From Escherichia phage AV112, in the sequence record OR352942.1: a DNA stretch of 64,000 nucleotides; one strand, written 5' to 3'. Within the stretch, counting starts at the first letter, position 1. Each line of letters starts with the position of its first letter. This document shows positions 1,925 to 63,452 of this stretch, in pieces. The translations under genes and the position numbers were made by a program. The notes beneath the pieces were generated by a model. It had not been told where the DNA came from, did not search any database, and saw only the letters and a list, made by a program, of their open reading frames with translations.

Positions 1925-1964
1925 TCCATGAGAGCATTATACTCTGCTCTCAAGAGTTTGTACA
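1925..1964 (-). promoter_or_regulatory. PeSL-like early promoter/stem-loop cassette
   Basis: Minus strand TTGTAC-N18-TATAAT with 8-bp inverted repeat TGAGAGCA/TGCTCTCA flanking the -10; same 38-bp unit recurs at 47231-47268. Confidence 0.5.
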
Positions 1965-1967
1965 ATT

Positions 1968-2168
1968 TTATTCGGTTATATCAGAACGTTCAAAAAGCTC
2001 TTCAACAGTTAAACATTCGGTGTCATCCTCAATAAAGAATCGGGTCCAACACGTTGGGGCGATGCAGTTATGAGTTTGCCCGGCTATAGAAGCTACACGA
2101 ATAAGCTGCTGACCATTATTCAGGACAAATTTTTCACCAATTTCAACATCTTTAAAAAGCTTAGCCAT
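1968..2168 (-). CDS. hypothetical protein (66 aa)
   Basis: ORF between two PeSL-like cassettes; no recognisable motif. Confidence 0.4.
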   Translation of the reverse strand: MAKLFKDVEIGEKFVLNNGQQLIRVASIAGQTHNCIAPTCWTRFFIEDDTECLTVEELFERSDITE

Positions 2169-2226
2169 TTTGTATTCCTCATGTTTTGATAGGACTACTA
2201 TACCATAATCCTACCTTGATGTAAAC
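2169..2226 (-). promoter_or_regulatory. PeSL-like early promoter/stem-loop cassette
   Basis: Minus strand GTTTAC-N18-TATAGT, inverted repeat TAGGA/TCCTA, GAGG Shine-Dalgarno before the ATG. Confidence 0.5.
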
Positions 2227-2418
2227 AATTAAATTACATTAAAATATGTTAAAGCCAACCATGTTCCGGTGAACGAACATGCGATGTAAAAACCTGTATC
2301 ACAAATTGTTCTTAGTACAATAATAAGTGCATTTTTCATAAGTACCTCAATGCAATTGAAAATATTATACAAATCATAGGGATACTAAGCAACCATATTC
2401 CGATCCACATTTTAGAGC

Positions 2419-2682
2419 TCATATCTCAACTTCCGCGAGTTCCATATATCCTTTGTTGATAACCTCTTTAAGGTCTTTAGAAAGAATAACACTAAAATGG
2501 TTGTTCATATGTCCATTAACCAGACGAGTTATTTCGGCTTCAGATGACATATAAGGCACGTCTGAGTCCCAATGAGATAGACCCAAATGGGTATAAATCA
2601 TCCCTTCGTCATCTGCAGTGTTGTACATTGAAACAAATTCGCCTGTTACTTTATGTTTTGCATAGAAAAATTTAAATTTCAT
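2419..2682 (-). CDS. hypothetical protein (87 aa)
   Basis: ORF directly downstream of a PeSL-like cassette. Confidence 0.4.
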   Translation of the reverse strand: MKFKFFYAKHKVTGEFVSMYNTADDEGMIYTHLGLSHWDSDVPYMSSEAEITRLVNGHMNNHFSVILSKDLKEVINKGYMELAEVEI

Positions 2683-2738
2683 GATGTTATCCTCTTTTAG
2701 ATAGGACTACTATATCATAGTCCTACTTAGTTGTAAAC
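2683..2738 (-). promoter_or_regulatory. PeSL-like early promoter/stem-loop cassette
   Basis: Minus strand GTTTAC-N18-TATAGT; perfect 8-bp inverted repeat TAGGACTA/TAGTCCTA. Confidence 0.5.
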
Positions 2739-2750
2739 ACTTTTATGAAA

Positions 2751-3371
2751 TTAAAGTTGAAGATACCACCCGTTGTAGTTGCTCTTGCGGACGATTTTCT
2801 TTAGATCTTCATGGTCTCCCACGAACTTTATAGAATAAGAGAAGACGTCAGGTGAGGTTTCTTTGACATCTAATATAATAATGCAATCTGCGACTCGATG
2901 GTTCAAGAAAGGCCCTATATTGATTCCATTACCACCCGGATAATCACCACTGTATCCTGTGGTAACAGAAATCCATTTAGAATCTATCTGGTGTGTCTTG
3001 ACTTCTACACGAATTCCACAATACTTGGGATGGGCTAACACGTCCCATGCATACGTGTACGGGTCTTCTACGTCTTCAATACCTTTATTAACATATCCGT
3101 CTAGCCAATTTGCTACTACATACTCTGCAAAGACCGCAACCTTACAACGTCGAACTACATCTTCTTTGTTTTGGTCAGGATTTTGGCTCAGGGAATACCG
3201 AGCAGTGTCAGCAATCTTCACCTTCATTTCACTAGTCAAAAACTCATTCGACAGGATAAATGTCGGAAGATTCTTCAGTCTCAACAGTCCCAAGTTCGTC
3301 TTTACCATAGATACCTCTGATGTGTAGTTCGCCAAAATAAATGCGGTCACCTTCTTCAAGATATTCTGCAT
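2751..3371 (-). CDS. hypothetical protein; true start probably internal (ATG at 3227, about 159 aa) because the first ATG overlaps the upstream ORF by about 128 nt
   Basis: ORF-track ORF; sits where T4 has denB but I see no diagnostic motif. Confidence 0.4.
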   Translation of the reverse strand: MQNILKKVTAFILANYTSEVSMVKTNLGLLRLKNLPTFILSNEFLTSEMKVKIADTARYSLSQNPDQNKEDVVRRCKVAVFAEYVVANWLDGYVNKGIEDVEDPYTYAWDVLAHPKYCGIRVEVKTHQIDSKWISVTTGYSGDYPGGNGINIGPFLNHRVADCIIILDVKETSPDVFSYSIKFVGDHEDLKKIVRKSNYNGWYLQL

Positions 3372-3531
3372 CTACCGGTGGGATTTCAATAACAACTTCG
3401 TCGCATTCTAACCAGCCGTAGTGTGCATCACCAGGATGTTTTACCAATTTAGCGCAATAAACTGATTTACACTTATGATGACCACGAAGATTAGCAATTT
3501 TGGATTCTGATACGTCAAATGGATGAATCAT
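3244..3531 (-). CDS. hypothetical Cys/His-containing protein (about 95 aa)
   Basis: ATG at 3531 with AGGGG Shine-Dalgarno immediately after the rIIB terminator; sequence MIHPFDVSESKIANLRGHHKCKSVYCAKL. Confidence 0.4.
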   Translation of the reverse strand: MIHPFDVSESKIANLRGHHKCKSVYCAKLVKHPGDAHYGWLECDEVVIEIPPVDAEYLEEGDRIYFGELHIRGIYGKDELGTVETEESSDIYPVE

Positions 3532-3545
3532 AATTACCCCTAAAG

Positions 3546-11094: not shown

Positions 11095-11321
11095 TAGTAA
11101 GTTTCCTTCCAATAAGTTGTACCATTTTCAGTGATTTCACGGAAGATACCATAGATAGGCATTTCATCACCGAGTTTTTCGTAAACGTAAACCACTTCAG
11201 TGTAGCATAAAAATTCTGTCCAGTTTTTCTGTACAACAACTAAATCAGGATTAAACAGAACATCTTCAAACTCATCGATGTTTGAATCAGTAGTTACGTT
11301 TTTAATGATTTGACGTTTCAT
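11094..11321 (-). CDS. hypothetical protein (about 75 aa; start taken at MKRQ)
   Basis: The ORF-track first ATG (11366) lies inside the PeSL cassette; internal ATG at 11321 has a GAGGAG Shine-Dalgarno. Confidence 0.4.
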
Positions 11322-11378
11322 AATATTCTCCTCTTGTTTTGATAGGTCTATAGTATCATAGGCCATAGTTGTTGTACA
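11322..11378 (-). promoter_or_regulatory. PeSL-like early promoter/stem-loop cassette
   Basis: Minus strand TGTACA -35-like, TACTAT -10-like, GAGGAG before the ATG. Confidence 0.4.
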
Positions 11379-11903
11379 TCATTTTAGCAAAATAAAATCA
11401 ACTTGTTCTGCCAATGAACGTCTGAACATTAATTGACAACTTCCGAGGATGAAATCAGGTGCTTCATAGACCGCGATGTAGTATCCTTTAGCTTTCAAGA
11501 GTTCAACATCCACCTGGTCATCAAACCATGCATAAACCGCGTCAACACTTTCAAATCCAAAATAGAGCCCTTTAGCCCAATCTTCACTCAATTCAAATGT
11601 TTGCTCAATTCTATAGTATCTTAAGATATTTTGTTCAAGGAGTTTGTCTTCATTTACTGTAGGACGATTAGGGACATTATAGTTGTCGCCGTGATGGTAG
11701 AAGTTACCTGAGAGTATTCCATGCTTATCAAGGAACTCCCATGTTTCTTCAGAGTTGTCGGTGCCCGTCCAACCGTATGGCGAACGAGGTTCTTTATTCC
11801 AAGAGGTTTCCCAAATTCTGACGGCTTTACCATCTTCGATAGCAATTCCTGGTAATGATTCACGTTGAGTACAAAAACTACGTTCTACGCGGTAAACTAA
11901 CAT
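11379..11903 (-). CDS. hypothetical protein (174 aa)
   Basis: ORF with its own PeSL cassette; no recognisable motif. Confidence 0.45.
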   Translation of the reverse strand: MLVYRVERSFCTQRESLPGIAIEDGKAVRIWETSWNKEPRSPYGWTGTDNSEETWEFLDKHGILSGNFYHHGDNYNVPNRPTVNEDKLLEQNILRYYRIEQTFELSEDWAKGLYFGFESVDAVYAWFDDQVDVELLKAKGYYIAVYEAPDFILGSCQLMFRRSLAEQVDFILLK

Positions 11904-11958
11904 ATTATTCTCCTCTGGTTGATATGGTTATAATATCAAAACCAGAGGAGAAGTAAAC
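11904..11958 (-). promoter_or_regulatory. PeSL-like early promoter/stem-loop cassette
   Basis: Minus strand GTTTAC-N17-TATTAT; perfect 12-bp inverted repeat TCTCCTCTGGTT (11909-11920) / AACCAGAGGAGA (11940-11951) enclosing the -10 and containing the SD. Confidence 0.55.
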
Positions 11959-12391: not shown

Positions 12392-12847
12392 TTAAGCTTT
12401 AAGAGGAGACACATAGCGAGTGATTTCAGATTCTTTAACAACTCGGAAGTCACCTAAGAATACGATATTGTATAACTTTTCGCCATCTTCAACCCATTGG
12501 TCACTAATGAAGCCACACATAGTATCAGTTTTGCTTGGATAACCGTATTCGTCGATGTAATCAAATTCTTTATCGGTTATAAATTCAACGCCTTTGCAAA
12601 GAGCCCATTTGAACTGTACATTAGGTTCAGTAGAAGCAAAATGAGCGCTCACACGAGTTTCCAGGAATTTAGGACTTACGTAAGCGTACTGAGTATCCTG
12701 ACGTCCAAAACTAGGAATGATTCGAACTTTAACTTCTTTAATGCGTCCCATGCCATTTGTGCGAAGTCCGACAACTTCAACCAGACGACCTGCGGCTTTA
12801 GACCGGGATGCAGTTGATACACGCTTAATTTCACCAATAGTAATCAT
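12392..12847 (-). CDS. hypothetical protein, member B of the paralogue triplet (about 151 aa; start at MITIGE)
   Basis: Motifs VSTASRSKAAGRLVEV and FISDQWVEDGEKLYNIVF; ORF-track start 12910 lies inside the promoter cassette. Confidence 0.5.
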   Translation of the reverse strand: MITIGEIKRVSTASRSKAAGRLVEVVGLRTNGMGRIKEVKVRIIPSFGRQDTQYAYVSPKFLETRVSAHFASTEPNVQFKWALCKGVEFITDKEFDYIDEYGYPSKTDTMCGFISDQWVEDGEKLYNIVFLGDFRVVKESEITRYVSPLKA

Positions 12848-12906
12848 AATTTTTCTCTCTTTGTTTAAGTTGAATTCATTATACTCCATCCGTCCTTGGA
12901 TGTACA
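12848..12906 (-). promoter_or_regulatory. PeSL-like early promoter/stem-loop cassette
   Basis: Minus strand TTGTACA-N-TATAAT; inverted repeat CATCC/GGATG; core ATTATACTCCA shared with 13431-, 55878- and 56871-type copies. Confidence 0.5.
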
Positions 12907-12909: not shown

Positions 12910-13404
12910 TTAATTTAGAATATTAACTACTGCACTACGTGGAACCACACTAAAATCACCGGCATGAACAACGTTCAGAAGTTCAACACCGTCTTCAATC
13001 CACTGGTCAGTTACCCATCCATTTACTGGACCATCGAATGGGCGTCGAATTGAAACATATTTACACAATAAATCAGTAGGCTCAATAGGCTTAATCAGAG
13101 TACCGTACATACAAACGATATCCATATCAAAGTGGAGACCATCTTTAACAGGTGCTTCTTCAATCAACAGTTCAAAGTCAGTGCTTGGAAGGGCAGTAGT
13201 AGAAATTGTACCGTATGAATTTTTAATTTCTAAGAATAACCAAGGGCCTTCAACTTGTTTAATGAAGTTAACAATAGTGAAACTATTACCTTGAGTGGCG
13301 CCTAAAATTTCACAAAACTTTTCATAAGCTCGCACTGAAGCACCGTACCAGTTGATTTGTTTTTCGTCTTTCAGGATGTAAGTAGCCGTAGTATTGATAT
13401 TCAT
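12910..13404 (-). CDS. hypothetical protein, member C of the paralogue triplet (about 164 aa; ATG at 13404)
   Basis: C-terminal motif WVTDQWIEDGVELLNVVHAGDFSVV matches the family; the ORF-track start is a TTG inside the cassette. Confidence 0.45.
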   Translation of the reverse strand: MNINTTATYILKDEKQINWYGASVRAYEKFCEILGATQGNSFTIVNFIKQVEGPWLFLEIKNSYGTISTTALPSTDFELLIEEAPVKDGLHFDMDIVCMYGTLIKPIEPTDLLCKYVSIRRPFDGPVNGWVTDQWIEDGVELLNVVHAGDFSVVPRSAVVNILN

Positions 13405-13464
13405 AATGTTTTCCCGTTTGGTTAAGATAGAAAGATTATACTCCAACCATCCTTGGTTGTAAAC
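13405..13464 (-). promoter_or_regulatory. PeSL-like early promoter/stem-loop cassette; member of a roughly 45-70-bp direct-repeat family
   Basis: Minus strand GTTTAC-N18-TATAAT; GTTAAGATAGAAAGATTATACTCCAACC[A/G]TCCTTGGTTGTAAACTG recurs at 55862-55907. Confidence 0.55.
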
Positions 13465-15781: not shown

Positions 15782-16528
15782 TTAACCTTTAATCAGTTGG
15801 AATAATGATGCGCTAAGTGGTAAGCCACGTTTCAATTTTAATTTACCAATTAAACCAATCTTTTCAAAACGTTGCAGACCTTGGATAACTTTATCATATG
15901 TATCGAAAAGCGATTCAGCGTCAGTTAATTTAGTTTTAGTTTTCCAGTCAGAGCCTTTAAGAAGAACGTTGAGTTTAGTAAGTTCATGGCCTTCTGCTTG
16001 ATGTGAGCCATTAATGCGTGCTTTCAAAGCAACAATTCTAAGTTTAGATTCGTTAGATAAAGGTTGATTTTTCATCATGTTCGCCATATGCTTAACACGG
16101 TTTTCACGTTTTGCTCGGATTTTTAAAATAGTACCATAAACCTTTTTAATTTGGGCCCATTTCTTCTCGTCGAGATTAAGTTTCTCTACTTTACGGGCAG
16201 AAGGATTAGCGATACGTCTTGCAATGGCATCACGTTTCTCAATAAGTTCTTCTAATGTTAAATCAGAACGAGCCGTGTTATATTTTTTCTTAACTGGGAT
16301 AACATTACCTTTAATGTAGCCGATATCGTTATTAAAACGTTCTAAGGATAATTTCTCACCTTCAACAGAGTTATTGAAAGATTCACCTGAGTAAGCGCAG
16401 ACCTTTTGATCAAGAATGTTTTTAAGGTAATTAAAGTCTAAGTTAAAATCCTTAGAGCGTCTCTTTGCAGAAGCTCTGGTGTGGTCAAGACGACGATTGA
16501 TTTTGTTAATTTTATTATTTGATAACAT
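15782..16528 (-). CDS. srd: Srd-like protein (248 aa), basic/helical
   Basis: Size and position between dda.1 and modA as in T4; highly basic sequence; assignment from synteny. Confidence 0.5.
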   Translation of the reverse strand: MLSNNKINKINRRLDHTRASAKRRSKDFNLDFNYLKNILDQKVCAYSGESFNNSVEGEKLSLERFNNDIGYIKGNVIPVKKKYNTARSDLTLEELIEKRDAIARRIANPSARKVEKLNLDEKKWAQIKKVYGTILKIRAKRENRVKHMANMMKNQPLSNESKLRIVALKARINGSHQAEGHELTKLNVLLKGSDWKTKTKLTDAESLFDTYDKVIQGLQRFEKIGLIGKLKLKRGLPLSASLFQLIKG

Positions 16529-16606
16529 AATATTTTCCTCTGTCTTACGGACGTTAGGTCATTTAGCTGATAGGGTTATAATATCATGCCCTCAGGTAGT
16601 GTACAC
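16529..16606 (-). promoter_or_regulatory. PeSL-like early promoter cassette upstream of srd
   Basis: Minus strand TGTACA -35-like, TATTAT -10, GGA Shine-Dalgarno. Confidence 0.4.
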
Positions 16607-16680: not shown

Positions 16681-17289
16681 TCAGTAACCGACAATAGACA
16701 GATTCCAGATTGTATAACGTCCATCTTGAATAATAGAATCTACACGCAGTGTAGTCCCTATAGGGAGCATAAATTCACATTCGTCAGATATAAGTCTAGC
16801 ATTAGACCGTCTTGTCGCTTCAGGGAAAGCTCCATTGAACTCACAAGATGGTGCAGCCAGAATCATATTAAGCATATGTTCACGGAAGTTGAAAGCAAAT
16901 GGTGCATCTTTGATGCAGAACATATTAAATGTTCCATAAAAATTATATGAAGCGAAGTTACGTGCTACACCAAACACCGGACTAAAGCTCATTACTCTGT
17001 CAAATTTAATAATACTACCAATGCCTTTATCATCGAGTGTGGCCATAGTTTTCTTAGAGATTCCACGATACATTGTCTCAGGAACAGAAGACGTCCAATT
17101 TCTACGAACAATTGCACTTAAATCTTGTTGGATGCTGTCTGGCTTGTTTTCCATACATTGCCATAGTACACTTTGTTCAATGTCGCTGAATTGCTCATCG
17201 ATTTTGTACTGAAGCATATCTTGATAATCCGGGCATTGAGCACGTCGAACCATTTCTTCAATTTCACACTCGTTATACGGCATAAACAT
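16681..17289 (-). CDS. modA: ADP-ribosyltransferase (ModA-like), 202 aa
   Basis: ART motifs: YRG (Arg), FSPVFGVAR (STS-like), acidic motif near the C-terminus; paralogous to the next ORF; T4 synteny. Confidence 0.65.
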   Translation of the reverse strand: MFMPYNECEIEEMVRRAQCPDYQDMLQYKIDEQFSDIEQSVLWQCMENKPDSIQQDLSAIVRRNWTSSVPETMYRGISKKTMATLDDKGIGSIIKFDRVMSFSPVFGVARNFASYNFYGTFNMFCIKDAPFAFNFREHMLNMILAAPSCEFNGAFPEATRRSNARLISDECEFMLPIGTTLRVDSIIQDGRYTIWNLSIVGY

Positions 17290-17346
17290 TTAGATTTCTC
17301 CTGTGGTTGATAAAGGTATAGTATCATCATCGGAAGAGTTTGTACA
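17290..17346 (-). promoter_or_regulatory. PeSL-like early promoter cassette upstream of modA
   Basis: Minus strand TGTACA ... TACTAT, GGAGA Shine-Dalgarno. Confidence 0.4.
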
Positions 17347-17928
17347 CTAAAAATTCAACATTTTCAAATGAATGATTTTGTATAATCGAGATAAAGGGTC
17401 ATATTCTAAGTCTTCAATTTTCACAATCTCAAATCTAGAGATACCTGAGACCATGTACTCTTGTTCAGATTCAATCATATCTAGGACATCGATACGAGTT
17501 TCTTCCATAACATGCTTAGGGTTCTTTCCGGCAAGTACAATGTTAACCATGTTTTGGTAGTAATCAAAAATGAATGGAGCATTCCTGAGACTAAGAATAG
17601 TGTACGTCTGATATTCCCAGCTCCCGGAGAATTGACGAGCTGTACTGAAATCAGTTGTGAACGATGTTACTCGTCCAGGAGACCAATGACATCCAACAGA
17701 AAGAAGGGAAAGACGTTCTACTTCTTCTGGAGTTACACCGCGGTAGAGTTCTACTGGTACTGTAGAAGTCATATGCTTACGAACAAGATGGTCTAATTCA
17801 TAGTGGAAATCCGGGTCTTCCTTAGAATCAGTGCAAGCCCAGAGAATGTTTTGTTCTTGGCGGGTGAATTTGCTATCAATCAGATTTGTTAGGTATTCAC
17901 GTTCTTGAAGTTCAGATTGACATGTCAT
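17347..17928 (-). CDS. modB: ADP-ribosyltransferase (ModB-like), 193 aa
   Basis: ART motifs YRGV, SFTTDFSTARQF and EQEYMVSG; paralogue of modA. Confidence 0.65.
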   Translation of the reverse strand: MTCQSELQEREYLTNLIDSKFTRQEQNILWACTDSKEDPDFHYELDHLVRKHMTSTVPVELYRGVTPEEVERLSLLSVGCHWSPGRVTSFTTDFSTARQFSGSWEYQTYTILSLRNAPFIFDYYQNMVNIVLAGKNPKHVMEETRIDVLDMIESEQEYMVSGISRFEIVKIEDLEYDPLSRLYKIIHLKMLNF

Positions 17929-17984
17929 GATAGACCTCCATTTAAAGATAAGCCTATCATAACACGAGAGGAGGGAATGTAAAC
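17929..17984 (-). promoter_or_regulatory. early promoter cassette upstream of modB
   Basis: Minus strand GTTTAC-N17-TATGAT, GGAGG Shine-Dalgarno. Confidence 0.45.
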
Positions 17985-19179: not shown

Positions 19180-19407
19180 TTAACAGCAAACAACTTCTTC
19201 AGCATCGTAAGCATTAATTGTTCCTCGAACAAAACGAACACCACCATCGTCCCAACGGATTTCGGCGTTAAATTTGACGTCTTCACCATCCATCATGAAT
19301 GAGTGTACGACTACATCATCGTAATATCCAAGACCGTATTTCAACGAAACTTCTTGAGCAATCAAAGCACCTAATGTGTTATTAGGTTTAATCCAACGAT
19401 TTAACAT
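19180..19407 (-). CDS. hypothetical protein (about 75 aa; start at MLNRW)
   Basis: ORF-track start 19476 lies in the promoter/terminator region; ATG at 19407 has a GAGGAG Shine-Dalgarno. Confidence 0.4.
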   Translation of the reverse strand: MLNRWIKPNNTLGALIAQEVSLKYGLGYYDDVVVHSFMMDGEDVKFNAEIRWDDGGVRFVRGTINAYDAEEVVCC

Positions 19408-19465
19408 ATTGTTCTCCTCTTGAGTAAGTAAGAATATCTTAACACAGTTTTTAGTGTTTGTAAAC
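19408..19465 (-). promoter_or_regulatory. early promoter cassette
   Basis: Minus strand GTTTAC-N18-TAAGAT; inverted repeat ACAGTTT/AAACTGT. Confidence 0.4.
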
Positions 19466-19784: not shown

Positions 19785-19790
19785 ACTTAA

Positions 19791-23004: not shown

Positions 23005-23290
23005 CTGTGATTTCGGTTACGATATCTTTGTTATCGAAATTAGGGTCACAATACAAAACATAATTGTACTGCATGATACCACCAGACTTAAGTTGTTCAA
23101 CAACTTTATTAACCATATTAGGACGGTCTCGTTTAGTGATGTTCATAATATCAGAGAAGATTTGTTGTTCAACATCTTCTTGATTTGCAGTCATTGACCA
23201 CTCACAGAGGTCTTTATCATAACCTGCCGTAACTGGAGCTGGTGCGCATGATACTGCAAGTAAGATTGCTGCCAATGATAACTTTTTCAT
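22997..23290 (-). CDS. sp: Spackle-like periplasmic protein with signal peptide/lipobox (97 aa)
   Basis: Signal peptide MKKLSLAAILLAVSC; motifs AGYDKDLCEWSMT and QYNYVLYCD as I recall for T4 Sp; 97 aa; position between 61 and 41. Confidence 0.55.
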   Translation of the reverse strand: MKKLSLAAILLAVSCAPAPVTAGYDKDLCEWSMTANQEDVEQQIFSDIMNITKRDRPNMVNKVVEQLKSGGIMQYNYVLYCDPNFDNKDIVTEITGE

Positions 23291-23349
23291 TTTAACTCCT
23301 TAGTTGATTTGATAGGACTACTATACCATAGTCCATCTATAATGTAAAC
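23291..23349 (-). promoter_or_regulatory. PeSL-like early promoter/stem-loop cassette upstream of sp
   Basis: Minus strand GTTTAC-N18-TATAGT; inverted repeat TAGGACTA/TAGTCC; GGAG Shine-Dalgarno. Confidence 0.5.
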
Positions 23350-23353: not shown

Positions 23354-23602
23354 TTATTCTTTTTCGCGAATAATAATTACTTGTTGAGGCTGCTGGGCAG
23401 ATTTCTTTTCGGCAACGATAGACCAAATTAAAGTTCCAATCCAACCAATCATCGTCCAGTTAAAGAGTAAAGATATAAAGAAGATTGCTGTTGTGCTTTT
23501 TGTGCCACGAATAAGTGCGATTACCCAAGGCAACATGTAAATGATGATTGAACCAATACCTGCGATTAAAACTGCTACTGAACTAGCTACGAATAATTCC
23601 AT
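23354..23602 (-). CDS. small membrane protein (82 aa, two or three TM helices)
   Basis: Hydrophobic sequence. Confidence 0.4.
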   Translation of the reverse strand: MELFVASSVAVLIAGIGSIIIYMLPWVIALIRGTKSTTAIFFISLLFNWTMIGWIGTLIWSIVAEKKSAQQPQQVIIIREKE

Positions 23603-23663
23603 GTTAATTTCCTCTTGATTTGTTATGTTTATAATATCTTGTTTTAACTTTGGTGTAAACCAA

Positions 23664-41104: not shown

Positions 41105-41146
41105 TTAATTTGATGTGGTCATTATAACCACATCTTGTTAAAGCGT

Positions 41147-46871: not shown

Positions 46872-47200
46872 TTTACCGCCTTAACAATTTTCAGGTCAAC
46901 GAATTTTTTCTTACGTTGATTTTTCATACGACGGATAGTCTTTTCAGAGATTTCATGTTTCTGATAAGCTTTAGATTCAACACCAAATGCAGCAACGTCA
47001 AATTCAGAAAGAATATATTGTACTAGAATTTCACGAATAGAATTACGTCCAATTTTCTGGTCGTGTTTTTGCATGATTTCATAAAGACGGAATTCCCACG
47101 CGTCAAGAACTTGAGGAGTAACAATATTGCCGGATTCAAGAAGAGCAACAACTTTATCGAAAGCGAAAGAATTAACTACGTTTTTGATTTTAGTAGACAT
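46868..47200 (-). CDS. hypothetical protein (about 110 aa; start at MSTKIK)
   Basis: ORF-track first ATG (47239) lies in the PeSL cassette; internal ATG has a GAGGAA Shine-Dalgarno. Confidence 0.4.
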   Translation of the reverse strand: MSTKIKNVVNSFAFDKVVALLESGNIVTPQVLDAWEFRLYEIMQKHDQKIGRNSIREILVQYILSEFDVAAFGVESKAYQKHEISEKTIRRMKNQRKKKFVDLKIVKAVK

Positions 47201-47266
47201 ATTATTTTCCTCGGTTATTTTATTATCCAATGAGAGCATTATACTCTGCTCTCAAGAGTTTGTAAA
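47201..47266 (-). promoter_or_regulatory. PeSL-like early promoter/stem-loop cassette; near-identical copy of 1929-1964
   Basis: TGAGAGCATTATACTCTGCTCTCAAGAGTTTGTA shared between the two loci. Confidence 0.5.
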
Positions 47267-47909: not shown

Positions 47910-48158
47910 TCAGAGGTTGATTGATACAATGCGTTTGATAAAATTCACTTCACTTACTGAAAGGTCTTTAAGACCGATTGATTCTAAACGCTGAGTAAGC
48001 GTCAACATCGGGATATAGTCCCAATGTGTTTTAGACGTTTGATAAGTACGGGCGCCATTAGCAATTTCAACGTTCAAATCAGAAATGGTAATGAATACCA
48101 GACGTTCGTTGTTTACATTAAGAGTTAGAACAACTTTCTTCGAATTCAGACTAATCAT
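47910..48158 (-). CDS. hypothetical protein (about 82 aa; start at MISLNSKK)
   Basis: GAGGAA Shine-Dalgarno before the ATG at 48158; GTTTAC-N17-TAAGAT promoter upstream (48159-48216). Confidence 0.4.
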   Translation of the reverse strand: MISLNSKKVVLTLNVNNERLVFITISDLNVEIANGARTYQTSKTHWDYIPMLTLTQRLESIGLKDLSVSEVNFIKRIVSINL

Positions 48159-48306
48159 TTTGTTTTCCTCTATAGTAGATGGTTTAATCTTAACACATCT
48201 ATTGAGGATGTAAACTGTTTTATGAAAATATTTTCGATTTGAGAGGGGCACAAGGAGATAGTGAAGTGAAGATTCCAATGGATTATATTAGAAATGAGAT
48301 AAAGAA

Positions 48307-53291: not shown

Positions 53292-53489
53292 TCAATATCC
53301 TCTATAAAAGTTGCGATGCGTGCGTTTCGCTTTGCGAAGCTGACGTTTAGTTGGTCGAACCGTAAATGGTCGTCCGGAGAAAAAATTTGGTTCAGTTTTA
53401 ATCAACACATACCAATCGTGTTCGCCACTTTTTAATAAACGGTACAATAATTTAACTTGCATAATAATCTCTTCCCATTTCCAAATCAA
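53292..53489 (-). CDS. hypothetical basic protein (65 aa)
   Basis: ORF-track ORF. Confidence 0.35.
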   Translation of the reverse strand: MIWKWEEIIMQVKLLYRLLKSGEHDWYVLIKTEPNFFSGRPFTVRPTKRQLRKAKRTHRNFYRGY

Positions 53490-53590
53490 TCATATCGTTT
53501 ACTGTAGGTTCATCATAACACGTTTCTTTGTCGTTGTAAACTGTTTCGACGTCTGGCTCGACAGTTTCCCATCGAGCCGAATACCATGGT

Positions 53591-54897: not shown

Positions 54898-55847
54898 TAT
54901 AAAACCTCAATGGCATTTCGTAAACCATCCGCTTTTGCATTCAGAGCTTTTAATGATTTAGTTTGTTCTGCAATCTGGGCTTCAACTTCTTTCAGACGAG
55001 ATTTGAGGTATTCGCGTTCTTCTCTTAAGTTATCAACTTTTTCTGCTTTAGGCTCTTTAATAGGCTTAGGTTTATACGTATTAGGGTTCTTCAGTTTAAT
55101 TAGAATGCGTGAACTGTACAGCATTGAACCATTATCTTCGGTTTCGTCATACATTTCCACTACGTCCATCATCTCCACCATCGTGCAGAGTTTATAAGAC
55201 AACGAACGAATAGTTTTGTTGTGCTTATTAATTTCTTTAGAGTTCATGGTGCCTAGATTACGCGAGTAGTAATAAGGAACCTGGATATCAACTGACAATG
55301 ATGCGTTACCATTGCCAGTTGGTTTGAATACTGCAGTAACCCAATCTTTAACATGAACTTTATTTGTACGGCCATCACCGCCAGTGAATAATTTACGAGA
55401 ATGTTTAAAAAGCATATTCACTTGGTTATTGAATTCACAAGCAAATTTATCAGCAAATTTAGTTTCAGGAATGGTAGATAACCAATCAGCTAAATGAGTC
55501 TTTTTAACATCGTTAATAATAGTAAATTCAACCAAATCAGTTTTAGATGTCACAGATTTAATAAAGCTCGGCTTCATAAAGTTTTTAATGTTATCGCGAG
55601 CTACAGTAGAAGATAATAAACGAGAACGTTTGAACCATTGAAGCAGTGTCCCTAATGAATGAGAATACGCATTCTGAGTATCTTTACAGATATGATTTTC
55701 TTGGCCTGTGTATGTACCAAAATCGCGAAGAATACCGCTTACTACAACTCGGTGTGGAACATCAAATCCTAATGAACCAGAAGCACGTTGGGCATGAACG
55801 TTAGCGATAAGACCTGCAAAATAATCAATGTAATGTGAACGTGTCAT
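54897..55847 (-). CDS. hypothetical protein with C-terminal coiled coil (316 aa)
   Basis: C-terminal heptad-rich stretch KVDNLREEREYLKSRLKEVEAQIAEQTKSLKALNAKADGLRNAIEVL. Confidence 0.45.
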   Translation of the reverse strand: MTRSHYIDYFAGLIANVHAQRASGSLGFDVPHRVVVSGILRDFGTYTGQENHICKDTQNAYSHSLGTLLQWFKRSRLLSSTVARDNIKNFMKPSFIKSVTSKTDLVEFTIINDVKKTHLADWLSTIPETKFADKFACEFNNQVNMLFKHSRKLFTGGDGRTNKVHVKDWVTAVFKPTGNGNASLSVDIQVPYYYSRNLGTMNSKEINKHNKTIRSLSYKLCTMVEMMDVVEMYDETEDNGSMLYSSRILIKLKNPNTYKPKPIKEPKAEKVDNLREEREYLKSRLKEVEAQIAEQTKSLKALNAKADGLRNAIEVL

Positions 55848-55905
55848 AATATTTTCCTCTCGTTAAGATAGAAAGATTATACTCCAACCGTCCTTGGTTG
55901 TAAAC
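55848..55905 (-). promoter_or_regulatory. PeSL-like early promoter cassette; direct repeat of 13405-13464
   Basis: GTTAAGATAGAAAGATTATACTCCAACCGTCCTTGGTTGTAAACTG: 45 bp with 1 mismatch to the copy at 13421. Confidence 0.55.
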
Positions 55906-55909: not shown

Positions 55910-56842
55910 TTATGATTTTAATGCATTCATTGCGTTAAAAAGTTTAGAGTACTGCAACTGGAGCTTGGTAACTACTTGTTGAGCATCACGAAGCTTAGCT
56001 TGTGCTTTGTCAAGTTCAACAGACAGTTGATCCACAGTGCCTTTGATTTGATTATAATAGTAATCTTCGGCAGGAAGAAGGCCGTTAGAGATTTCCAGTT
56101 TAGTCGTCGGTGTGCCGTTAAACATAACAGGTTGTGCTGAAGCTGCATTAATCTTACCGATAGTCGGGGCGACAATAATTGACGCTTCGAACGTTGCATT
56201 TTCCTTTTTAAGATTTTGATAGTATTCAGAGTCTTTGTGCCACCATGGCGCAGGAACCTTTTTACCAATAGATACACGAGCCTGGATAGCGATATGGCCC
56301 TTATTCTTGATAACGTCGATAATATTAAGCTCACGAGAATAAATTGCTTTAATCTGGTGAATATTATCACCTAACACTTCCAACGCTTGGTGGAATACAC
56401 GAGCAACGTTATCATTCTTAGGTTTATACGTAAGAGTGAACTCGTTCTCACTGATAACCATGATTTCTAACTTATCGTAAGTATATTTCAAATGTTTCAT
56501 GTTAATTGCTTGAGGACGAATACGAGAAGCAATGGCCATCAGATTGTTAAGGTTATTCCGGAACTGCTTAGCGAAATATTGTCCTTCACCACCAATACAA
56601 AAATTACGAAGTTTCTGTTTGGCTAATAAACGGCTGAACTCACCGTTTTTAATGAACTCTTTAACGGGTGTGTTAGTAACGCATTCAAATTGAGTAAACT
56701 TACGAGAAGTAATCCCATAATATGAACAGATTTCCTCAATCTCTTCAGGAGTCTTTACAGGCATACGGATAGGATTAGGACCTGGGGTATATGCGTTCGA
56801 GGTAAATTCTTTGATAAGTTCTCTACGTGTAATAGAAGCCAT
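55910..56842 (-). CDS. hypothetical protein with C-terminal coiled coil (310 aa)
   Basis: C-terminal DQLSVELDKAQAKLRDAQQVVTKLQLQYSKLFNAMNALKS. Confidence 0.45.
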   Translation of the reverse strand: MASITRRELIKEFTSNAYTPGPNPIRMPVKTPEEIEEICSYYGITSRKFTQFECVTNTPVKEFIKNGEFSRLLAKQKLRNFCIGGEGQYFAKQFRNNLNNLMAIASRIRPQAINMKHLKYTYDKLEIMVISENEFTLTYKPKNDNVARVFHQALEVLGDNIHQIKAIYSRELNIIDVIKNKGHIAIQARVSIGKKVPAPWWHKDSEYYQNLKKENATFEASIIVAPTIGKINAASAQPVMFNGTPTTKLEISNGLLPAEDYYYNQIKGTVDQLSVELDKAQAKLRDAQQVVTKLQLQYSKLFNAMNALKS

Positions 56843-56897
56843 TTTATATTCCTCATGTTGAAAAATTTATTATACTCCAACCATCCTTGGTTGTACA
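56843..56897 (-). promoter_or_regulatory. PeSL-like early promoter cassette (same repeat family)
   Basis: TATTATACTCCAACCATCCTTGGTTGTACA. Confidence 0.5.
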
Positions 56898-57893: not shown

Positions 57894-57955
57894 ATCTATT
57901 TCCTCAGATTGAATTGGAACTCAAAACCATTATAACCCGTCCTTGGGTAAAGCGT
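57894..57955 (-). promoter_or_regulatory. degenerate promoter cassette (MotA-box-like aaaCGCTTTA - 13 nt - TATAAT)
   Basis: Minus strand CGCTTTACCCAAGGACGGGTTATAAT; related to the repeat family. Confidence 0.35.
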
Positions 57956-58483
57956 TTATGCGTGAACCGTCTTTAAACGTTCTTCAAATTTCCGAAGAGT
58001 ACTAATACGTTCTGCTTTCTGTTTTGTATAGTTTGCAATACGTTCTGAAGTGAGAGCGTATCGTTCGTTTACTGTTTCTTTCATGAAGTCAGGGATTTCA
58101 CGAGAAGCTTTAATTTCATCAAACTTATCGAGTACTGCCTGGTCTTCAGCGATTAAATTTTCGTACATCTCGATATCTTTCTTGATGAAGTCGATATCTT
58201 CCTGGGTTACTTTGGATAAACGAGATGCTTTATCCTTTTTGTATTGCTCGTTAGTTTCACGAGACCAGAATAATGTACGTTTTTTGTTAGTGTTTTTGTA
58301 GACTTCCACAATTCCAACTGAATCGATGATAGCAATCCAATTCCAGCGAGATTTGAAAATCTGACCTCCGTCCACGGTAATCTCGTTACCATAAGCAACA
58401 TCATTAAAGAACTTGCTTTGTGCTTCAGATTTAAATTTACCGTCGTTATAATTTACCAGGTTGAAAATATCTTTAGCGTTCAT
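57956..58483 (-). CDS. hypothetical protein (175 aa)
   Basis: ORF-track ORF downstream of a PeSL cassette. Confidence 0.4.
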   Translation of the reverse strand: MNAKDIFNLVNYNDGKFKSEAQSKFFNDVAYGNEITVDGGQIFKSRWNWIAIIDSVGIVEVYKNTNKKRTLFWSRETNEQYKKDKASRLSKVTQEDIDFIKKDIEMYENLIAEDQAVLDKFDEIKASREIPDFMKETVNERYALTSERIANYTKQKAERISTLRKFEERLKTVHA

Positions 58484-58540
58484 GTTTTACCTCCAGTAGT
58501 TGATAGGTCTATAATAACACAACCATAGACCTTGTAAACA
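58484..58540 (-). promoter_or_regulatory. PeSL-like early promoter/stem-loop cassette
   Basis: Minus strand GTTTAC-N17-TATTAT; shares a 31-bp core with 24819-24849 but the downstream stem arm is replaced by ATAGACC, which pairs with GGTCTAT. Confidence 0.55.
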
Positions 58541-58967: not shown

Positions 58968-59948
58968 TTATTTCAGTAAAGTAACTTCAGAGATTTCCTC
59001 CCAACCATCTTTATCAGTTGAAATAAAATCTGCTACATAAAGAGCCGTACGTAATGATACATTGCGAAGACGAGATACATTAGCCTTCATCCAGGACAAT
59101 GCTTTATACGTTTCTGCATCTGTCAGACCACGTTTCTGCATCATGTCAGTAGATAATATTACATCTTCAACTCGAACCATAATCTCTTCATTAGAGTGTA
59201 CTCCAAGGTCGAGATACACTGAACGAGATACTAAAGCTTGAAGGTGTGGGGCAAGTTTCGAACCGCGTTCTAACTCTTTATCGATATCAACGTTTGTAAT
59301 GAAAACGATAGTACCTTCAAACTCAAATTCTTTATCAATACCCTTATCATCGAGATAAGATGACGCAGTGCTCCAACAAACTTTGCGTTTATCTCCAGTA
59401 TCTAATGCTGCTTTAAGAAGGTTCAAGATGTCCATATCTGAGAATACGTCAACGTCGTCGATTAAGAGAACGCTGTCTGCATCACGGTTGAGCCAAAGTT
59501 GTTCGTAAAGGCCAATACCGGAGATTTTACCATTAATGCTTTTGTATTTGATGAAACCATTATCATTAGCGTTATTAAGTGCTTTATCCAGAGAATACGT
59601 CTTACCAATACCGGCTGCACCTGAAATAATGAGTGAACGAATTTTGCCATCGATAATGCCATTCGTCATCATGTTCATTACTTTAAAGCGTTTGTTGATA
59701 CGAGTTTTCATATCTTCAGTGCTTTCAACAACTGCAACTGGTGACGTCTCAACTCCTTCCATTACGATGTCTGATTTGAAGACCCATACTCCACGTTCAG
59801 ACCCATCAATCATAACGAAAATTTTACCATCACCTAAGTGGGAACATTCAGGATTAAGCTTTGCTGGGAACCATGTCTTTGTGGCAACATAAGAACCAGA
59901 GATTTCGTTATTACGATAAATACCTTTTTTGATTTGAACGTTGAACAT
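58968..59948 (-). CDS. P-loop (AAA-like) ATPase, about 326 aa (start at MFNVQ)
   Basis: Walker A GAAGIGKT, Walker B LLIDDVD; the second ATG has a GGAG Shine-Dalgarno. Confidence 0.5.
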   Translation of the reverse strand: MFNVQIKKGIYRNNEISGSYVATKTWFPAKLNPECSHLGDGKIFVMIDGSERGVWVFKSDIVMEGVETSPVAVVESTEDMKTRINKRFKVMNMMTNGIIDGKIRSLIISGAAGIGKTYSLDKALNNANDNGFIKYKSINGKISGIGLYEQLWLNRDADSVLLIDDVDVFSDMDILNLLKAALDTGDKRKVCWSTASSYLDDKGIDKEFEFEGTIVFITNVDIDKELERGSKLAPHLQALVSRSVYLDLGVHSNEEIMVRVEDVILSTDMMQKRGLTDAETYKALSWMKANVSRLRNVSLRTALYVADFISTDKDGWEEISEVTLLK

Positions 59949-60015
59949 TTTATTCTCCAATTTACTCATTTCGTTTCGATAGGTCTATAATAACATGTTT
60001 AAAGCAAAAGTAAAC
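59949..60015 (-). promoter_or_regulatory. PeSL-like early promoter cassette
   Basis: Minus strand GTTTAC-N17-TATTAT with GATAGGTCTATAATAAC core. Confidence 0.45.
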
Positions 60016-60017: not shown

Positions 60018-60236
60018 TTATTTGCGACGAGATTTTTTGGTAAGAGGTTGAAAGAACACTGCTTTACCTGCTGGGGTTAAGGTGACTCGTAATGCATTAC
60101 CGATTCCTAAGGATGCTTTAACTAGACCTTTAGCTTTCAGTTCACCGAATGCTTGACGTTGGTCTGCATCACGAGTGTTAACCATAAGACCTTTATCACC
60201 TGCTTCACGAATCATTTCTAACATTTTGGTTTTCAT
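60018..60236 (-). CDS. hypothetical basic protein (about 72 aa; start at MKTKM)
   Basis: ORF-track first ATG lies in the PeSL cassette; GAGGAG Shine-Dalgarno before the internal ATG. Confidence 0.4.
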   Translation of the reverse strand: MKTKMLEMIREAGDKGLMVNTRDADQRQAFGELKAKGLVKASLGIGNALRVTLTPAGKAVFFQPLTKKSRRK

Positions 60237-60292
60237 TTTGTTCTCCTCTTGTTTTGATAGGTCTATAATAACATATCCTAAAAGCATGTACA
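60237..60292 (-). promoter_or_regulatory. PeSL-like early promoter cassette
   Basis: TGTACA -35-like, TATTAT -10, GATAGGTCTATAATAAC core. Confidence 0.45.
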
Positions 60293-61647: not shown

Positions 61648-62117
61648 TTGGCCTTATATTCGAGAGTAGGACAGATTTTTTCTTTACGAGCTTTAAGGTA
61701 TTCACCTATTAATGATTTCTTACGTTCAATAGGCTCAAGACCATTTTTAATTCGTTCTTGGTTTTGTGCAATGAGCTCAATTTCTTTATAATATTTTCTG
61801 TCGTTATATTTGTCTAACAACCAAGACGGACCAATTACCAACCCGGTAGCAATAAAAGCCATGACTGCTACCATTAAAATGCCTACACCAATTGAGGCCG
61901 GAACTAATGTCCATAGACTGCTAAAAACAAAGAATCTAGTTAAAATTTCCTGGCCAATGATTACTACTGCTGCTAAAATAGCAAATCCAATAATTGAAAC
62001 AGACAATACTGGGATTAACGTTTTCCAAAAATAAGCACACAACGTTTTCGGGCGATTCCATGTACTATTGAACGCGGCATAAATTTTAAAGTGCCAAGAG
62101 TTTTCATTGATAATCAT
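61644..62117 (-). CDS. membrane protein (157 aa, about three TM helices)
   Basis: Hydrophobic segments; overlaps the start of the NTase-fold gene by 4 nt. Confidence 0.45.
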   Translation of the reverse strand: MIINENSWHFKIYAAFNSTWNRPKTLCAYFWKTLIPVLSVSIIGFAILAAVVIIGQEILTRFFVFSSLWTLVPASIGVGILMVAVMAFIATGLVIGPSWLLDKYNDRKYYKEIELIAQNQERIKNGLEPIERKKSLIGEYLKARKEKICPTLEYKAK

Positions 62118-62126
62118 AATAATTCC

Positions 62127-62657
62127 TTATTTCAAAGTCGGGATAATAGAATCAAGATAAGCTTTAAGAGCAACTGCTTCATCTTTGTCTAATGTAATGA
62201 TATGTTGACGAAGGTCATCAATTTGACGAATAACTACGACATCGCCATCTTCATAAGAAGGATTAACGCCTAAGACCGTTGTAGAGTCAGGGTTGGCCGG
62301 ATTTGTAATAAAAGCATTACGGCATTTAGCCCATTGAAGTTTGGCCTTTTTGGCTGTTTCAGATTCCACGAATTCTTTCACCTTAGTGACGAATGTTTTC
62401 CAATTATTAATAGAAAAACATTCGTCTTCAGTTTCGATATTAACCCCACTATAAAGTCCATGATAAAAACGAACTTGAAGGTCTTCGTCAATGTTAATTA
62501 CAGATGCATGGCCCGGTGGATTGAGTTTCAAAATCTTGTCCAGTTCCATAGGAAGAATAGTAGCAGCATCATCTTCTTGTGTCAGAACATACACATAACC
62601 ACGTTTTTCGATACATAAATCACCAAACAACTCGGTTGTTTCAATTACAGTTTTCAT
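62127..62657 (-). CDS. hypothetical protein (about 176 aa; start at MKTVIE)
   Basis: ORF-track ORF; the first codon in the track is TTG. Confidence 0.4.
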   Translation of the reverse strand: MKTVIETTELFGDLCIEKRGYVYVLTQEDDAATILPMELDKILKLNPPGHASVINIDEDLQVRFYHGLYSGVNIETEDECFSINNWKTFVTKVKEFVESETAKKAKLQWAKCRNAFITNPANPDSTTVLGVNPSYEDGDVVVIRQIDDLRQHIITLDKDEAVALKAYLDSIIPTLK

Positions 62658-62658
62658 A

Positions 62659-62837
62659 TTATTCACCAATTAAAGTTTCAACAAAATTCACCAAAGCATT
62701 CTGGCAAGCATCAACCTGATTTTCATAAAAGTCTCCGTTATCATTTACCGCATGATAAGCTACATCATTCAAATCTGAATCGGCTTCACGTAAGTCACGG
62801 ATAAGGTCCATCAATTTATTAGCTTGTTCACGGGTCA
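62659..62837 (-). CDS. small acidic protein (about 58 aa), below ORF-track cutoff
   Basis: Hand translation MTREQANKLMDLIRDLREADSDLNDVAYHAVNDNGDFYENQVDACQNALVNFVETLIGE. Confidence 0.3.
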
Positions 62838-62945
62838 TTTTACCATACTCGTTTCAATAAGATTCACTATGCCGTTTACCATGTTATAAGTAAACATCGG
62901 ATAATTGTATTGTACTACAACATAAGCGATAAGCAAAAGTTTCAT

Positions 62946-63003
62946 TTTGTTCTCCATTTGTTTTGGTAGGATTACTATATCATAGTCCTACCAAGACGTA
63001 AAC
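62946..63003 (-). promoter_or_regulatory. PeSL-like early promoter/stem-loop cassette
   Basis: Minus strand GTTTAC-N18-TATAGT; inverted repeat GGTAGGA/TCCTACC; GGAG Shine-Dalgarno. Confidence 0.5.
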
Positions 63004-63236
63004 TACCGATTGTGTTTTAAATGTTGATAAAGTTCTTCAACTTGTTTAGGGTCCAAAACAATTAAGTCATTTTCTTGGCGAAGATAAATCCATCCCTTAT
63101 CCCCAGGGCCATTTTTACAAAACATCACCACCGTATCATCATCTTCAGCGCTTTCAGGTAAAAGTTCAAGTACACCGTCTTCAGATTTTCCAGTATAATC
63201 GTAAAGCATAATGTCCTCACATAATCTCGTTAACAT
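63003..63236 (-). CDS. hypothetical acidic protein (77 aa)
   Basis: ORF-track ORF. Confidence 0.4.
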   Translation of the reverse strand: MLTRLCEDIMLYDYTGKSEDGVLELLPESAEDDDTVVMFCKNGPGDKGWIYLRQENDLIVLDPKQVEELYQHLKHNR

Positions 63237-63396
63237 ACATTTGTAATTCGGTGTGGGCTTCGGCCATCTTTTTCATAGCTTTGTTAATGTCGATGTCTCC
63301 ATCTTCGCATCCATGAGCATTTTCCCAATCAGATACCGCATTAGCGTACTCTTCAATCAAAAACATTAACTTAGAAATTTTTTCTTTACGTGTCAT
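63217..63396 (-). CDS. hypothetical protein (about 59 aa; start at MTRKEK)
   Basis: ORF-track first ATG lies in the PeSL cassette; GGAG Shine-Dalgarno before the internal ATG. Confidence 0.35.
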   Translation of the reverse strand: MTRKEKISKLMFLIEEYANAVSDWENAHGCEDGDIDINKAMKKMAEAHTELQMYVNEIM

Positions 63397-63452
63397 AACG
63401 TTCTCCTCTAGTAAGTAAAGACTACTATAACACAACCTGAGGAGAAGTAAAC
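63397..63452 (-). promoter_or_regulatory. PeSL-like early promoter cassette
   Basis: Minus strand GTTTAC-N17-TATAGT; inverted repeat TCTCCTC/GAGGAGA. Confidence 0.5.

Follow-up and report, generated by a model that had tools for sequence, protein, structure and literature searches.

A 64,000-nt stretch of the genome of Escherichia phage AV112 (OR352942.1; hereafter the window) carries 26 copies of a compact unit of about 57 bp, in which an early promoter, in most copies combined with an inverted repeat, directly precedes the Shine-Dalgarno (SD) sequence and start codon of a gene. We identify these units with high confidence as the Mosigvirus version of the early-promoter-plus-stem-loop (PeSL) cassettes of T4-type phages. 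As the best overall explanation, we think it probable that they are early-promoter cassettes of which a subset forms hairpins blocking the ribosome-binding site (RBS) in RNA that reads through from upstream, and that the other hairpins act on the upstream message.

Gene annotation was taken from Escherichia phage AV113 (OR352943.1), an RB69-like Mosigvirus of the T4 family, to which a 10-kb probe from the window is 100% identical; the window equals positions 64000-127999 of that record. It covers the early and middle region, with topoisomerase, ndd, denB, rIIB/A, motB, dexA, dda, srd and modA/B, as well as genes 61, 41, uvsX, 43, 45, 46, 47, 55, nrdG/D, 49, pin, nrdC.x and rI. All annotated genes lie on the minus strand, except for one small plus-strand open reading frame (ORF; 20403-20600). 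Cassettes are named by the start coordinate of their -35 hexamer, and all cassette coordinates refer to the minus strand. For comparison, the window was aligned to RB69, phiC120 (partial) and LF82-33, with the comparison of RB69 promoters covering RB69 positions 1-61000.

A strict promoter expression (T[TG]TACN, 16-17 nt, TAnnnT) matched the minus strand 33 times and the plus strand 8 times, compared with 6.7 ± 2.5 matches in 200 dinucleotide shuffles. Extended by an SD and an ATG, it matched the minus strand 27 times and the plus strand not at all, with 0.4 ± 0.6 matches in the shuffles. The 26 curated cassettes have -35 starts from 63451 to 1964, coinciding with the range (1925-63452) in which the original prediction, made by a model from the sequence alone, had placed recurring promoter units. 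It had named GTTTAC or TGTACA at -35 with a TATAAT-like -10; the consensus of the curated set is aaA..GTTTACa..taTGnTATnATa..CCTATCaa..AGAGGAaAAtAa.ATG, the -10 being of the extended type (TGnTAnnnT). In order, the elements are the upstream stop codon, an A-rich UP-like region, the -35, a spacer of 16-17 nt, the extended -10, the CCTATCAA start region, a leader of about 20 nt with a GAGG/GGAG SD, and the ATG. SD and start codon occupy the 3' end in 26/26 cassettes, and 26-30 nt separate the end of the -10 from the ATG in 21/26. Because the -35 begins 0-5 nt past the stop codon of the upstream gene in 17/26, the cassette is essentially the intergenic region itself. The CCTATCAA block is conserved 7-14 nt downstream of each -10 (for example at 2700-2708 and 24825-24833), over the expected transcription start, and a similar block is found in cassette-like sites of distant T4-like contigs (GGTCCTATCAAATC, GGTCCCATCAAATC).

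Cassettes cluster at 1.9-2.7 kb, 11-25 kb and 47-63 kb (Table 1). No strict cassette lies between 25300 and 47266, from gene 41 to gene 55, in keeping with the earlier claim that the core replication operons lack them; this stretch uses intergenic MotA-box middle-promoter motifs instead, ahead of genes 39, 56, uvsX, 45, 45.2 and 47. The accompanying claim that the units flank small accessory ORFs needs qualification: the neighbours are indeed non-core genes, but their products are 36-326 aa long, and ndd, srd, modA, modB, imm, sp and members of the motB family are among them. Degenerate or half cassettes occur at 2340-2418, 34121-34161 and 58830-58967 (minus strand), one of them type A-like (see below) without a -10 and two retaining TGTACA and the SD without a -10; they resemble the ‘degraded PeSLs’ of PST and nt-1.

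PeSLs were described in RB49 and phi1 as a stop codon, an AT-rich region, a sigma-70 promoter, a stem-loop, an SD and a start codon, with the stem-loop most often between -35 and -10 or overlapping the -10 (Arbiol et al. 2010, PMC2839356). They were later extended to T4/PST and KVP40/nt-1 and are expected in all T4-like phages (Comeau et al. 2014, PMC4122927); their features also include encapsidated mini-circles arising by recombination between neighbouring cassettes (PMC2839356, PMC4122927). The window’s cassettes share with them the strong sigma-70-like early promoter, the A/T-rich upstream region, a stem-loop between -35 and -10 or over the -10, and the 3' SD and start codon; moreover, in both cases the copies are numerous, lie outside the conserved core and host the junctions of indels among close relatives. 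The PeSL-like label given to the units by the original prediction is thus apt in architecture, copy number, non-core placement and indel involvement (PMC2839356, PMC4122927). Whereas the published PeSLs are from RB49/phi1, T4/PST and KVP40/nt-1, the present cassettes are RB69-like, and the main text of Arbiol et al. does not contain the term RB69 (PMC2839356). Furthermore, RB49 stems pair G-runs with C-runs and were assayed as terminators, whereas AV113 stems are AT-rich, lack a U-tract and are, in a subset, built on the SD and AUG.

The promoters themselves have been predicted before. All 23 cassettes with a counterpart in the compared part of RB69 coincide one-to-one with early promoters predicted by Nolan et al. 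2006 (additional file 3), sharing the GTTTAC -35, the -10 and the C-rich region at -3 to -1 that those authors noted (PMC1524935). The paper lists only promoters; a search of its text turned up nothing on inverted repeats, hairpins or RBS pairing (PMC1524935).

Three indels in relatives have junctions inside cassettes. At exactly the position of cassette 47266, a further 296-298 bp is found in RB69, phiC120 and LF82-33; the RB69 insert consists of a second cassette (Pe:42816 of Nolan et al., stem GATAGGGAAGA/TCTTCCTATC) plus ORF075, with the junction in the -35 box. LF82-33 lacks the gene between cassettes 25300 and 24866, with a chimeric cassette in its place, and also lacks the ORF between 60292 and 60014, with the junction within a shared GTTATTATAGACCTATC block; these two deletions have both junctions inside cassettes. 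The three events are what the PeSL shuffling model predicts: relatives differ by recombination between cassettes, and these repeated, similar units also act as sites of homologous recombination through which the genes between them are added, removed or swapped. The remaining indels comprise homing-endonuclease insertions, an internal modB deletion in phiC120, and events at terminators or at overlapping start/stop codons.

Several of these other differences were recorded in their own right. LF82-33 has a 595-bp insertion (window 63464-63491) with a 558-nt gene that is preceded by TATAAATA; on its two sides the insertion has directly duplicated copies of the terminator AGCCCCTTCC..GGTTGGGGCTTTTT. 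It thus seems that terminators, besides promoter cassettes, serve as recombination sites. Between nrdD and gene 49, AV113 has a homing-endonuclease gene (51538-52359, minus strand) that RB69 and LF82-33 lack, and phiC120 has a different homing-endonuclease gene, between ORF003 and gene 39. At the site of the 240-nt gene 46.1 of RB69, phiC120 and LF82-33, the window carries an 861-nt gene (42822-43682, minus strand), about 826 bp replacing about 215 bp, with no cassette at either junction.

As for the stem-loops, the original prediction had an inverted repeat of 5-12 bp enclosing every -10. Perfect repeats of at least 5 bp are present in 20/26 cassettes, of at least 6 bp in 11 and of at least 7 bp in 9, with a maximum of 13 bp, but 5-bp repeats are partly inherent in the consensus (TGATA...TATCA) and the claim fails for about a third of the set, discussed below. 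As a group, the cassettes fold better than shuffled sequences, with a mean z of -1.70 and 10/26 below -2, as against -0.10 and 5/84 for the 60 nt upstream of 84 other window genes (Mann-Whitney p = 4.5e-5). Native pairs of 5' and 3' halves reach -10.6 kcal/mol, compared with -8.1 for chimeras assembled from 5' and 3' halves of different cassettes, a control that retains composition and conserved motifs (permutation p = 2e-4); the two arms of each cassette are therefore matched. Similar folding is seen in 62 cassette-like sites at 14 loci of other T4-like contigs (mean z -1.61, 35% below -2). Rfam gave no match at gathering score in the whole window.

The stems occupy three placements. The first lies within the spacer (13463, 12906, 55904, 56897). 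The second, type A, surrounds the -10, as in TAGGACTA/TAGTCCTA, TGAGAGCA/TGCTCTCA and AGGTCTAT/ATAGACCT; the CCTATCAA block makes up much of the 3' arm of these hairpins. The third, type B, is long-range, its 5' arm following directly on the -35 and its 3' arm being the SD (24866, 11957, 63451, 25300, 48214). In every hairpin-bearing cassette, the 5' arm is upstream of the expected start site. With that site expected 6-8 nt after the -10, we infer from the geometry of the arms that RNA begun at a cassette’s own promoter would lack the upstream arm, and the hairpin would form only in RNA reading through from an upstream promoter.

It had been proposed that such hairpins sequester the RBS of read-through transcripts throughout the set; what stood up is a subset, 6-9 of 26. 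When read-through RNA is modelled by partition function, the probability that the SD is unpaired falls below 0.3 in 9/26 cassettes and to 0.06 or less in 63451, 56897, 48214, 24866, 17983 and 11957. Five cassettes have a perfect repeat over the SD (63451, 25300, 24866, 17983, 11957), and 48214 pairs it by a composite stem. The longer transcript is thus predicted to have its SD and/or AUG paired at 63451, 48214, 25300, 24866 (ORF040/dmd), 17983 (modB) and 11957 (motB.2). Likewise, the SD had been placed in or beside the downstream arm, which is true of 5-6 cassettes with the SD inside the 3' arm, while elsewhere the arm ends 11-39 nt before the ATG. Anti-SD motifs (CTCC/CCTC) occur in 6/26 spacers, compared with 3.7% of random 17-mers (p = 3e-4), and the stems of type B paralogs co-vary (CCAGTAG/CTACTGG, CCTCTAG/CTAGAGG, CCTCTGG/CCAGAGG). 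On these models we lean, by a little, towards hairpins of the subset blocking translation of read-through RNA.

In such RNA, type B and modB hairpins would block 30S binding, so that the gene would be translated mainly from transcripts of its own promoter and, where the SD is paired, gene dosage would be insulated from read-through. No terminators lie between the cassettes of the array 25300, 24866, 24089, 23659 and 23348. Silencing of read-through copies is plausibly important for ModB, whose over-expression is lethal to the cell (PMC3014915), a toxicity that provides the rationale for it. Comparable control is known for the T4 genes e, soc, 49 and I-TevI, whose long transcripts fold a helix over the SD and/or AUG and whose promoters, in or before the 5' arm, yield shorter, translatable transcripts without that arm (PMC3014915). 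Those promoters are late (TATAAATA), silent early and active late in infection, whereas the promoters embedded in AV113 hairpins are early and sigma-70-type. Both transcript forms would therefore be made together, and the outcome would be insulation from read-through dosage rather than timing. Two sites in the window lie where T4 is known to control the RBS by transcript length: the only intergenic TATAAATA, a late promoter upstream of soc at 19784 (region 19746-19790, minus strand), and, upstream of gene 49 (52830-52864, minus strand), a hairpin ACCCTTA..TAAGGGT adjoining the late-promoter-like AATAAATA.

Much of this is already published, namely the RB69 promoters, the PeSL concept, their distribution, their role in shuffling and the promoter-in-hairpin principle. 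Modestly new is the proposal that early promoters double as anti-RBS arms; no description of it was found in the PeSL papers, two T4 reviews or the RB69 promoter survey, and older T4 literature may mention it. A broader form of it, put forward tentatively and quite possibly too wide, is that T-even phages including T4 keep a conserved subset of early promoters whose DNA, in the spacer or the -10/discriminator, encodes the anti-RBS arm. Genes such as motB.2 and modB, which specifies a toxic ADP-ribosyltransferase, would then be translated only from own-promoter transcripts, while RNA reading through from strong promoters nearby would stay silent; this would be a promoter-coupled translational insulator within the early class.

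Spacer and type A stems leave the SD free; their likeliest role, which we hold with less than even confidence, would be to attenuate the message upstream of them or to protect its 3' end. The reading of the PeSL authors could also be applied to the whole class, with all stem-loops being terminators or attenuators that stop transcripts from upstream cassettes and any effect on the RBS being incidental. In RB49 and phi1, a PeSL stem-loop set between a promoter and lacZ cut expression as much as the rrnB T1 terminator (PMC2839356); since the -35 so often follows the upstream stop codon at once, the promoter is where a hairpin directed at that message has to sit, and spacer-only and type A hairpins cannot reach the SD. 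Cassette hairpins also resemble canonical intrinsic terminators in standing directly after a gene, but they are less GC-rich, their stems are short and AT-rich, and no U-tract follows, whereas the window has true terminators at separate sites, built from a GC-rich stem, a UUCG loop and a T-run, and four of them directly precede cassettes. Two cassettes right behind such terminators (63451, 25300) nevertheless have SD-pairing stems, and the long stems of the type B and modB cassettes are tailored to the SD and AUG, with which they co-vary. We consider it rather unlikely, then, that termination accounts for the whole class. As canonical intrinsic terminators the cassette hairpins were rejected, with 0-4 T (mostly 1-2) in the next 8 nt, and no cassette was picked out by a scan for terminators on the strand of the genes.

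In comparisons with relatives, the earlier expectation that the inverted repeats are kept holds clearly for the modB cassette and fades for weaker stems. Formal covariation was run on the modB family only, as stem registers differ among cassettes; its upstream regions, found by pattern search in Mosigvirus, T4 and IMG/VR contigs, gave 12 distinct sequences, the contigs, at about 70% identity, apparently representing other T-even lineages, JS98-like ones among them. The helix joining the -10/discriminator to GGAGG and the AUG is paired in 93.9% of cells, compared with 31-56% in slid registers, and its covariation of 0.27 (0.155 in shuffles) was reached by 0/500 of the shuffles; two pairs change on both sides, in 7 cells. 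Going by these sequences, the modB hairpin is clearly conserved with compensatory changes in at least five inferred phage lineages, T4 included. T4 modB, motB.2 and dmd show the same architectures as AV113 with different stems: the modB stem is present, motB.2 has a type B stem unrelated in sequence to that of AV113, and dmd has a type A stem of 15 bp. The RefSeq T4 record holds no promoter features, and a related-locus search with MotB.2 returned three near-identical contigs only, leaving T4 as the sole cross-genus comparison for that cassette.

Smaller changes point the same way. Between AV113 and RB69, cassette 47266 has two compensatory pairs (T-A to C-G and C-G to A-T), cassette 2225 has one in phiC120, and the spacer stem CAACC..GGTTG of three paralogs (13463, 55904, 56897) is matched by a compensatory CATCC..GGATG in 12906. 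Orthologs retain a stability of -9.2 kcal/mol, against -9.3 in AV113 and -8.0 in random mutants with equal numbers of changes (Wilcoxon p = 0.03; n = 43, a set that mixes orthologs with some best-hit paralogs). Otherwise, cassettes are nearly identical within Mosigvirus.

Several observations weigh against our interpretation. We infer every step at the RNA level from sequence. Class-wide RBS sequestration is ruled out, as modelled SD accessibility in read-through RNA is 0.43, compared with 0.45 in 74 ordinary window genes (p = 0.43); the predicted rise in accessibility from read-through to cassette-initiated RNA does appear (0.43 to 0.67) but is largely an effect of the shorter leader. Seven to nine cassettes, about a third, have no hairpin beyond chance (among them 23659, 24089, 60014, 53540, 16605, 11378 and 60292), and a single consensus structure for all cassettes was rejected, since hairpin position varies and the stems lie in different registers. 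Within Mosigvirus, substitutions affect 5.0% of paired and 4.6% of unpaired positions, and 32 break and 17 preserve a pair; these counts use minimum-free-energy (MFE) pairs, many from weak folds, in a set (RB69, phiC120, LF82-33 and two IMG/VR contigs) that is 94-99% identical and hence uninformative. Taken as it stands, the pair-substitution count speaks against the weaker stems being strongly constrained. In LF82-33, the chimeric cassette no longer has the 13-bp stem of 24866. Finally, about 5 of 11 indel events have junctions in cassettes, which make up about 37% of intergenic bases, so there is no enrichment, and only indels with junctions inside two cassettes are diagnostic.

Some of these observations are what would be expected if the inverted repeats had no RNA function and were DNA-level by-products of templated (quasi-palindrome) mutation or recombination, or were recombination hot spots. 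Quasi-palindrome-templated mutation was first described in T4. The variable registers, the third of cassettes lacking a hairpin, the equal rates at paired and unpaired sites, the loss of a stem in the LF82-33 recombinant without apparent harm, and the demonstrable recombination between cassettes all fit such an origin. It is harder to reconcile with the modB hairpin, which uses different stem sequences across at least five inferred lineages yet always pairs the SD and AUG, with the motB.2 stems of T4 and AV113, wholly different in sequence and identical in architecture, and with the enrichment of anti-SD motifs in spacers and the greater stability of orthologs than of random mutants. We hold it improbable.

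A further possibility concerns those type B hairpins whose 5' arm starts within about 10 nt of the upstream stop codon (24866, 11957); here the stretch of the arm that pairs with the SD is the outermost one, nearest to the stop. These could be translational-coupling devices, the terminating ribosome melting the outer TTCTCC/GGAGAA and freeing the SD, so that read-through RNA, instead of being silent, would be translated only along with the upstream gene. At 24866 the stop codon precedes the -35 hexamer by 1 nt and at 11957 by 5 nt, so the arm starts about 7-11 nt after the stop. That distance is within reach of a terminating ribosome, given the size of its footprint. The modB arm, however, starts about 26 nt after the stop, and 63451, 25300 and 48214 follow terminators or long gaps; coupling, and with it a read-through RNA that is conditionally translated, strikes us as quite improbable. 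Palindromes overlapping the -10 might also be operators for a dimeric DNA-binding regulator that shuts off early promoters, a process whose mechanism in T4 is still unexplained (PMC2988021, PMC3014915). Because at least seven unrelated stem sequences occur in differing registers to the -10, there is no common operator sequence, and many cassettes have no repeat at all, making this reading very improbable.

Table 1. Cassettes of the window, listed by -35 start, and two MotA-box variants, with the matching RB69 early promoter (dG, folding free energy; z, folding z-score)
Feature	Coordinates	Strand	Hairpin class	Details	RB69
63451	63394..63451	-	type B	arm TCTCCTC just past -35 pairs SD GAGGAGA; canonical terminator upstream	Pe:58138
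63002	62943..63002	-	type A	9-bp repeat TTGGTAGGA/TCCTACCAA around -10; z = -4.1	Pe:57689
60292	60234..60292	-	weak hairpin	one partner in LF82-33 cassette-cassette recombination	Pe:55296
60014	59946..60014	-	no significant hairpin	other partner, with 60292, in LF82-33 recombination	Pe:55018
58538	58481..58538	-	type A	8-bp repeat AGGTCTAT/ATAGACCT around -10	Pe:53683
56897	56840..56897	-	spacer hairpin	AACCAAGGATGGTT; z = -2.2	Pe:52042
55904	55845..55904	-	spacer-hairpin family	CAACCAAGGACGGTTG	Pe:51019
53540	53460..53540	-	no hairpin	long leader, 49 nt	Pe:48639
48214	48156..48214	-	type B	composite stem TCCTC..TAGATG / CATCTA..GAGGA pairs SD; SD unpaired 0.01; z = -3.4	Pe:43945
47266	47198..47266	-	type A	8-bp repeat TGAGAGCA/TGCTCTCA around -10; z = -3.5	Pe:42515
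25300	25240..25300	-	type B	TTCCTCT/AGAGGAA; canonical terminator upstream; LF82-33 deletion partner	Pe:20971
24866	24810..24866	-	type B	13-bp repeat TCTCCAGTAGTTG/CAACTACTGGAGA, -10 in loop, SD in 3' arm; dG -21.9; SD unpaired 0.00; z = -5.3	Pe:20537
24089	24030..24089	-	no significant hairpin		Pe:19761
23659	23600..23659	-	no hairpin	dG 0	Pe:19331
23348	23288..23348	-	type A	upstream of sp; GGACTA/TAGTCC around -10	Pe:19020
19464	19405..19464	-		follows canonical terminator; drives unannotated 75-aa ORF	Pe:14950
17983 (modB)	17926..17983	-		-10/discriminator TGATAGGC pairs SD-AUG region GTCTATCA; dG -22.5	Pe:13466
17346 (modA)	17287..17346	-	weak hairpin		Pe:12829
16605 (srd)	16526..16605	-		long leader	Pe:12088
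13463	13402..13463	-	spacer-hairpin family	CAACC..GGTTG	Pe:8947
12906 (motB)	12845..12906	-	spacer-hairpin family	variant stem CATCC..GGATG; within annotated coding-sequence start	Pe:8387
11957 (motB.2)	11901..11957	-	type B	12-bp repeat TCTCCTCTGGTT/AACCAGAGGAGA over SD; dG -23.9; z = -8.2	Pe:7443
11378 (cef)	11319..11378	-	type A stem	one mismatch in AV113, perfect in relatives	Pe:6863
2737	2680..2737	-	type A	TAGGACTA/TAGTCCTA, 8 bp; z = -2.4	
2225	2166..2225	-	type A	TAGGATTAT/ATAGTAGTCCTA; z = -3.1; one compensatory pair in phiC120	
1964 (ndd)	1889..1964	-	type A	TGAGAGCA/TGCTCTCA; paralog of cassette 47266	
MotA-box (GCTTTA) middle-promoter variant, PmSL-like	41093..41146	-		8-bp repeat GATGTGGT/ACCACATC around -10	
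MotA-box variant	57894..57955	-		spacer-hairpin core CCAAGGACGG of the 13463/55904/56897 family; GCTTTAC, 12-nt spacing to -10	

Of the two MotA-box variants, the site at 57894-57955 looks like an early promoter that was turned into a middle promoter through a short deletion in the spacer.

The cassettes also bear on the annotation of neighbouring genes. Five annotated AV113 coding-sequence starts (12910, 11366, 60287, 47239 and 62957, minus strand) fall either within a cassette, at its -10 or SD, or ahead of its -35; the SD and ATG of the cassettes indicate starts at 12847, 11321, 60236, 47200 and 62945 instead, respectively, and the RB69 annotation agrees with the cassette-based starts for cef, motB and gp55.2. 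Behind cassette 19464, in a 294-nt stretch listed as intergenic, lies an unannotated ORF of 75 aa (19180-19407, minus strand) at the position of RB69 mrh.2, of which it is probably a homolog. Five annotated AV113 starts thus look wrong, and one gene appears to be missing. Elsewhere, the 220-nt ‘intergenic’ stretch at 45187-45406 corresponds to RB69 a-gt.3, and the plus-strand gene at 20403-20600 is RB69 ORF029w, a predicted membrane protein; it sits between genes 56 and 61, in a gap of 284 nt, and converges on gene 61.

In practical terms, the cassettes mark real gene starts and can thereby improve annotation, and they explain where RB69-like therapeutic coliphages gain and lose genes. They extend PeSLs to a fourth T4-type lineage and indicate that PeSL hairpins are not one single thing. 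If RBS blocking in the subset is true, it would show how closely packed, very strong promoters can be kept from adding up to over-expression of the early genes behind them, some of which are toxic, and the cassettes could provide compact promoter-insulator parts for phage engineering.

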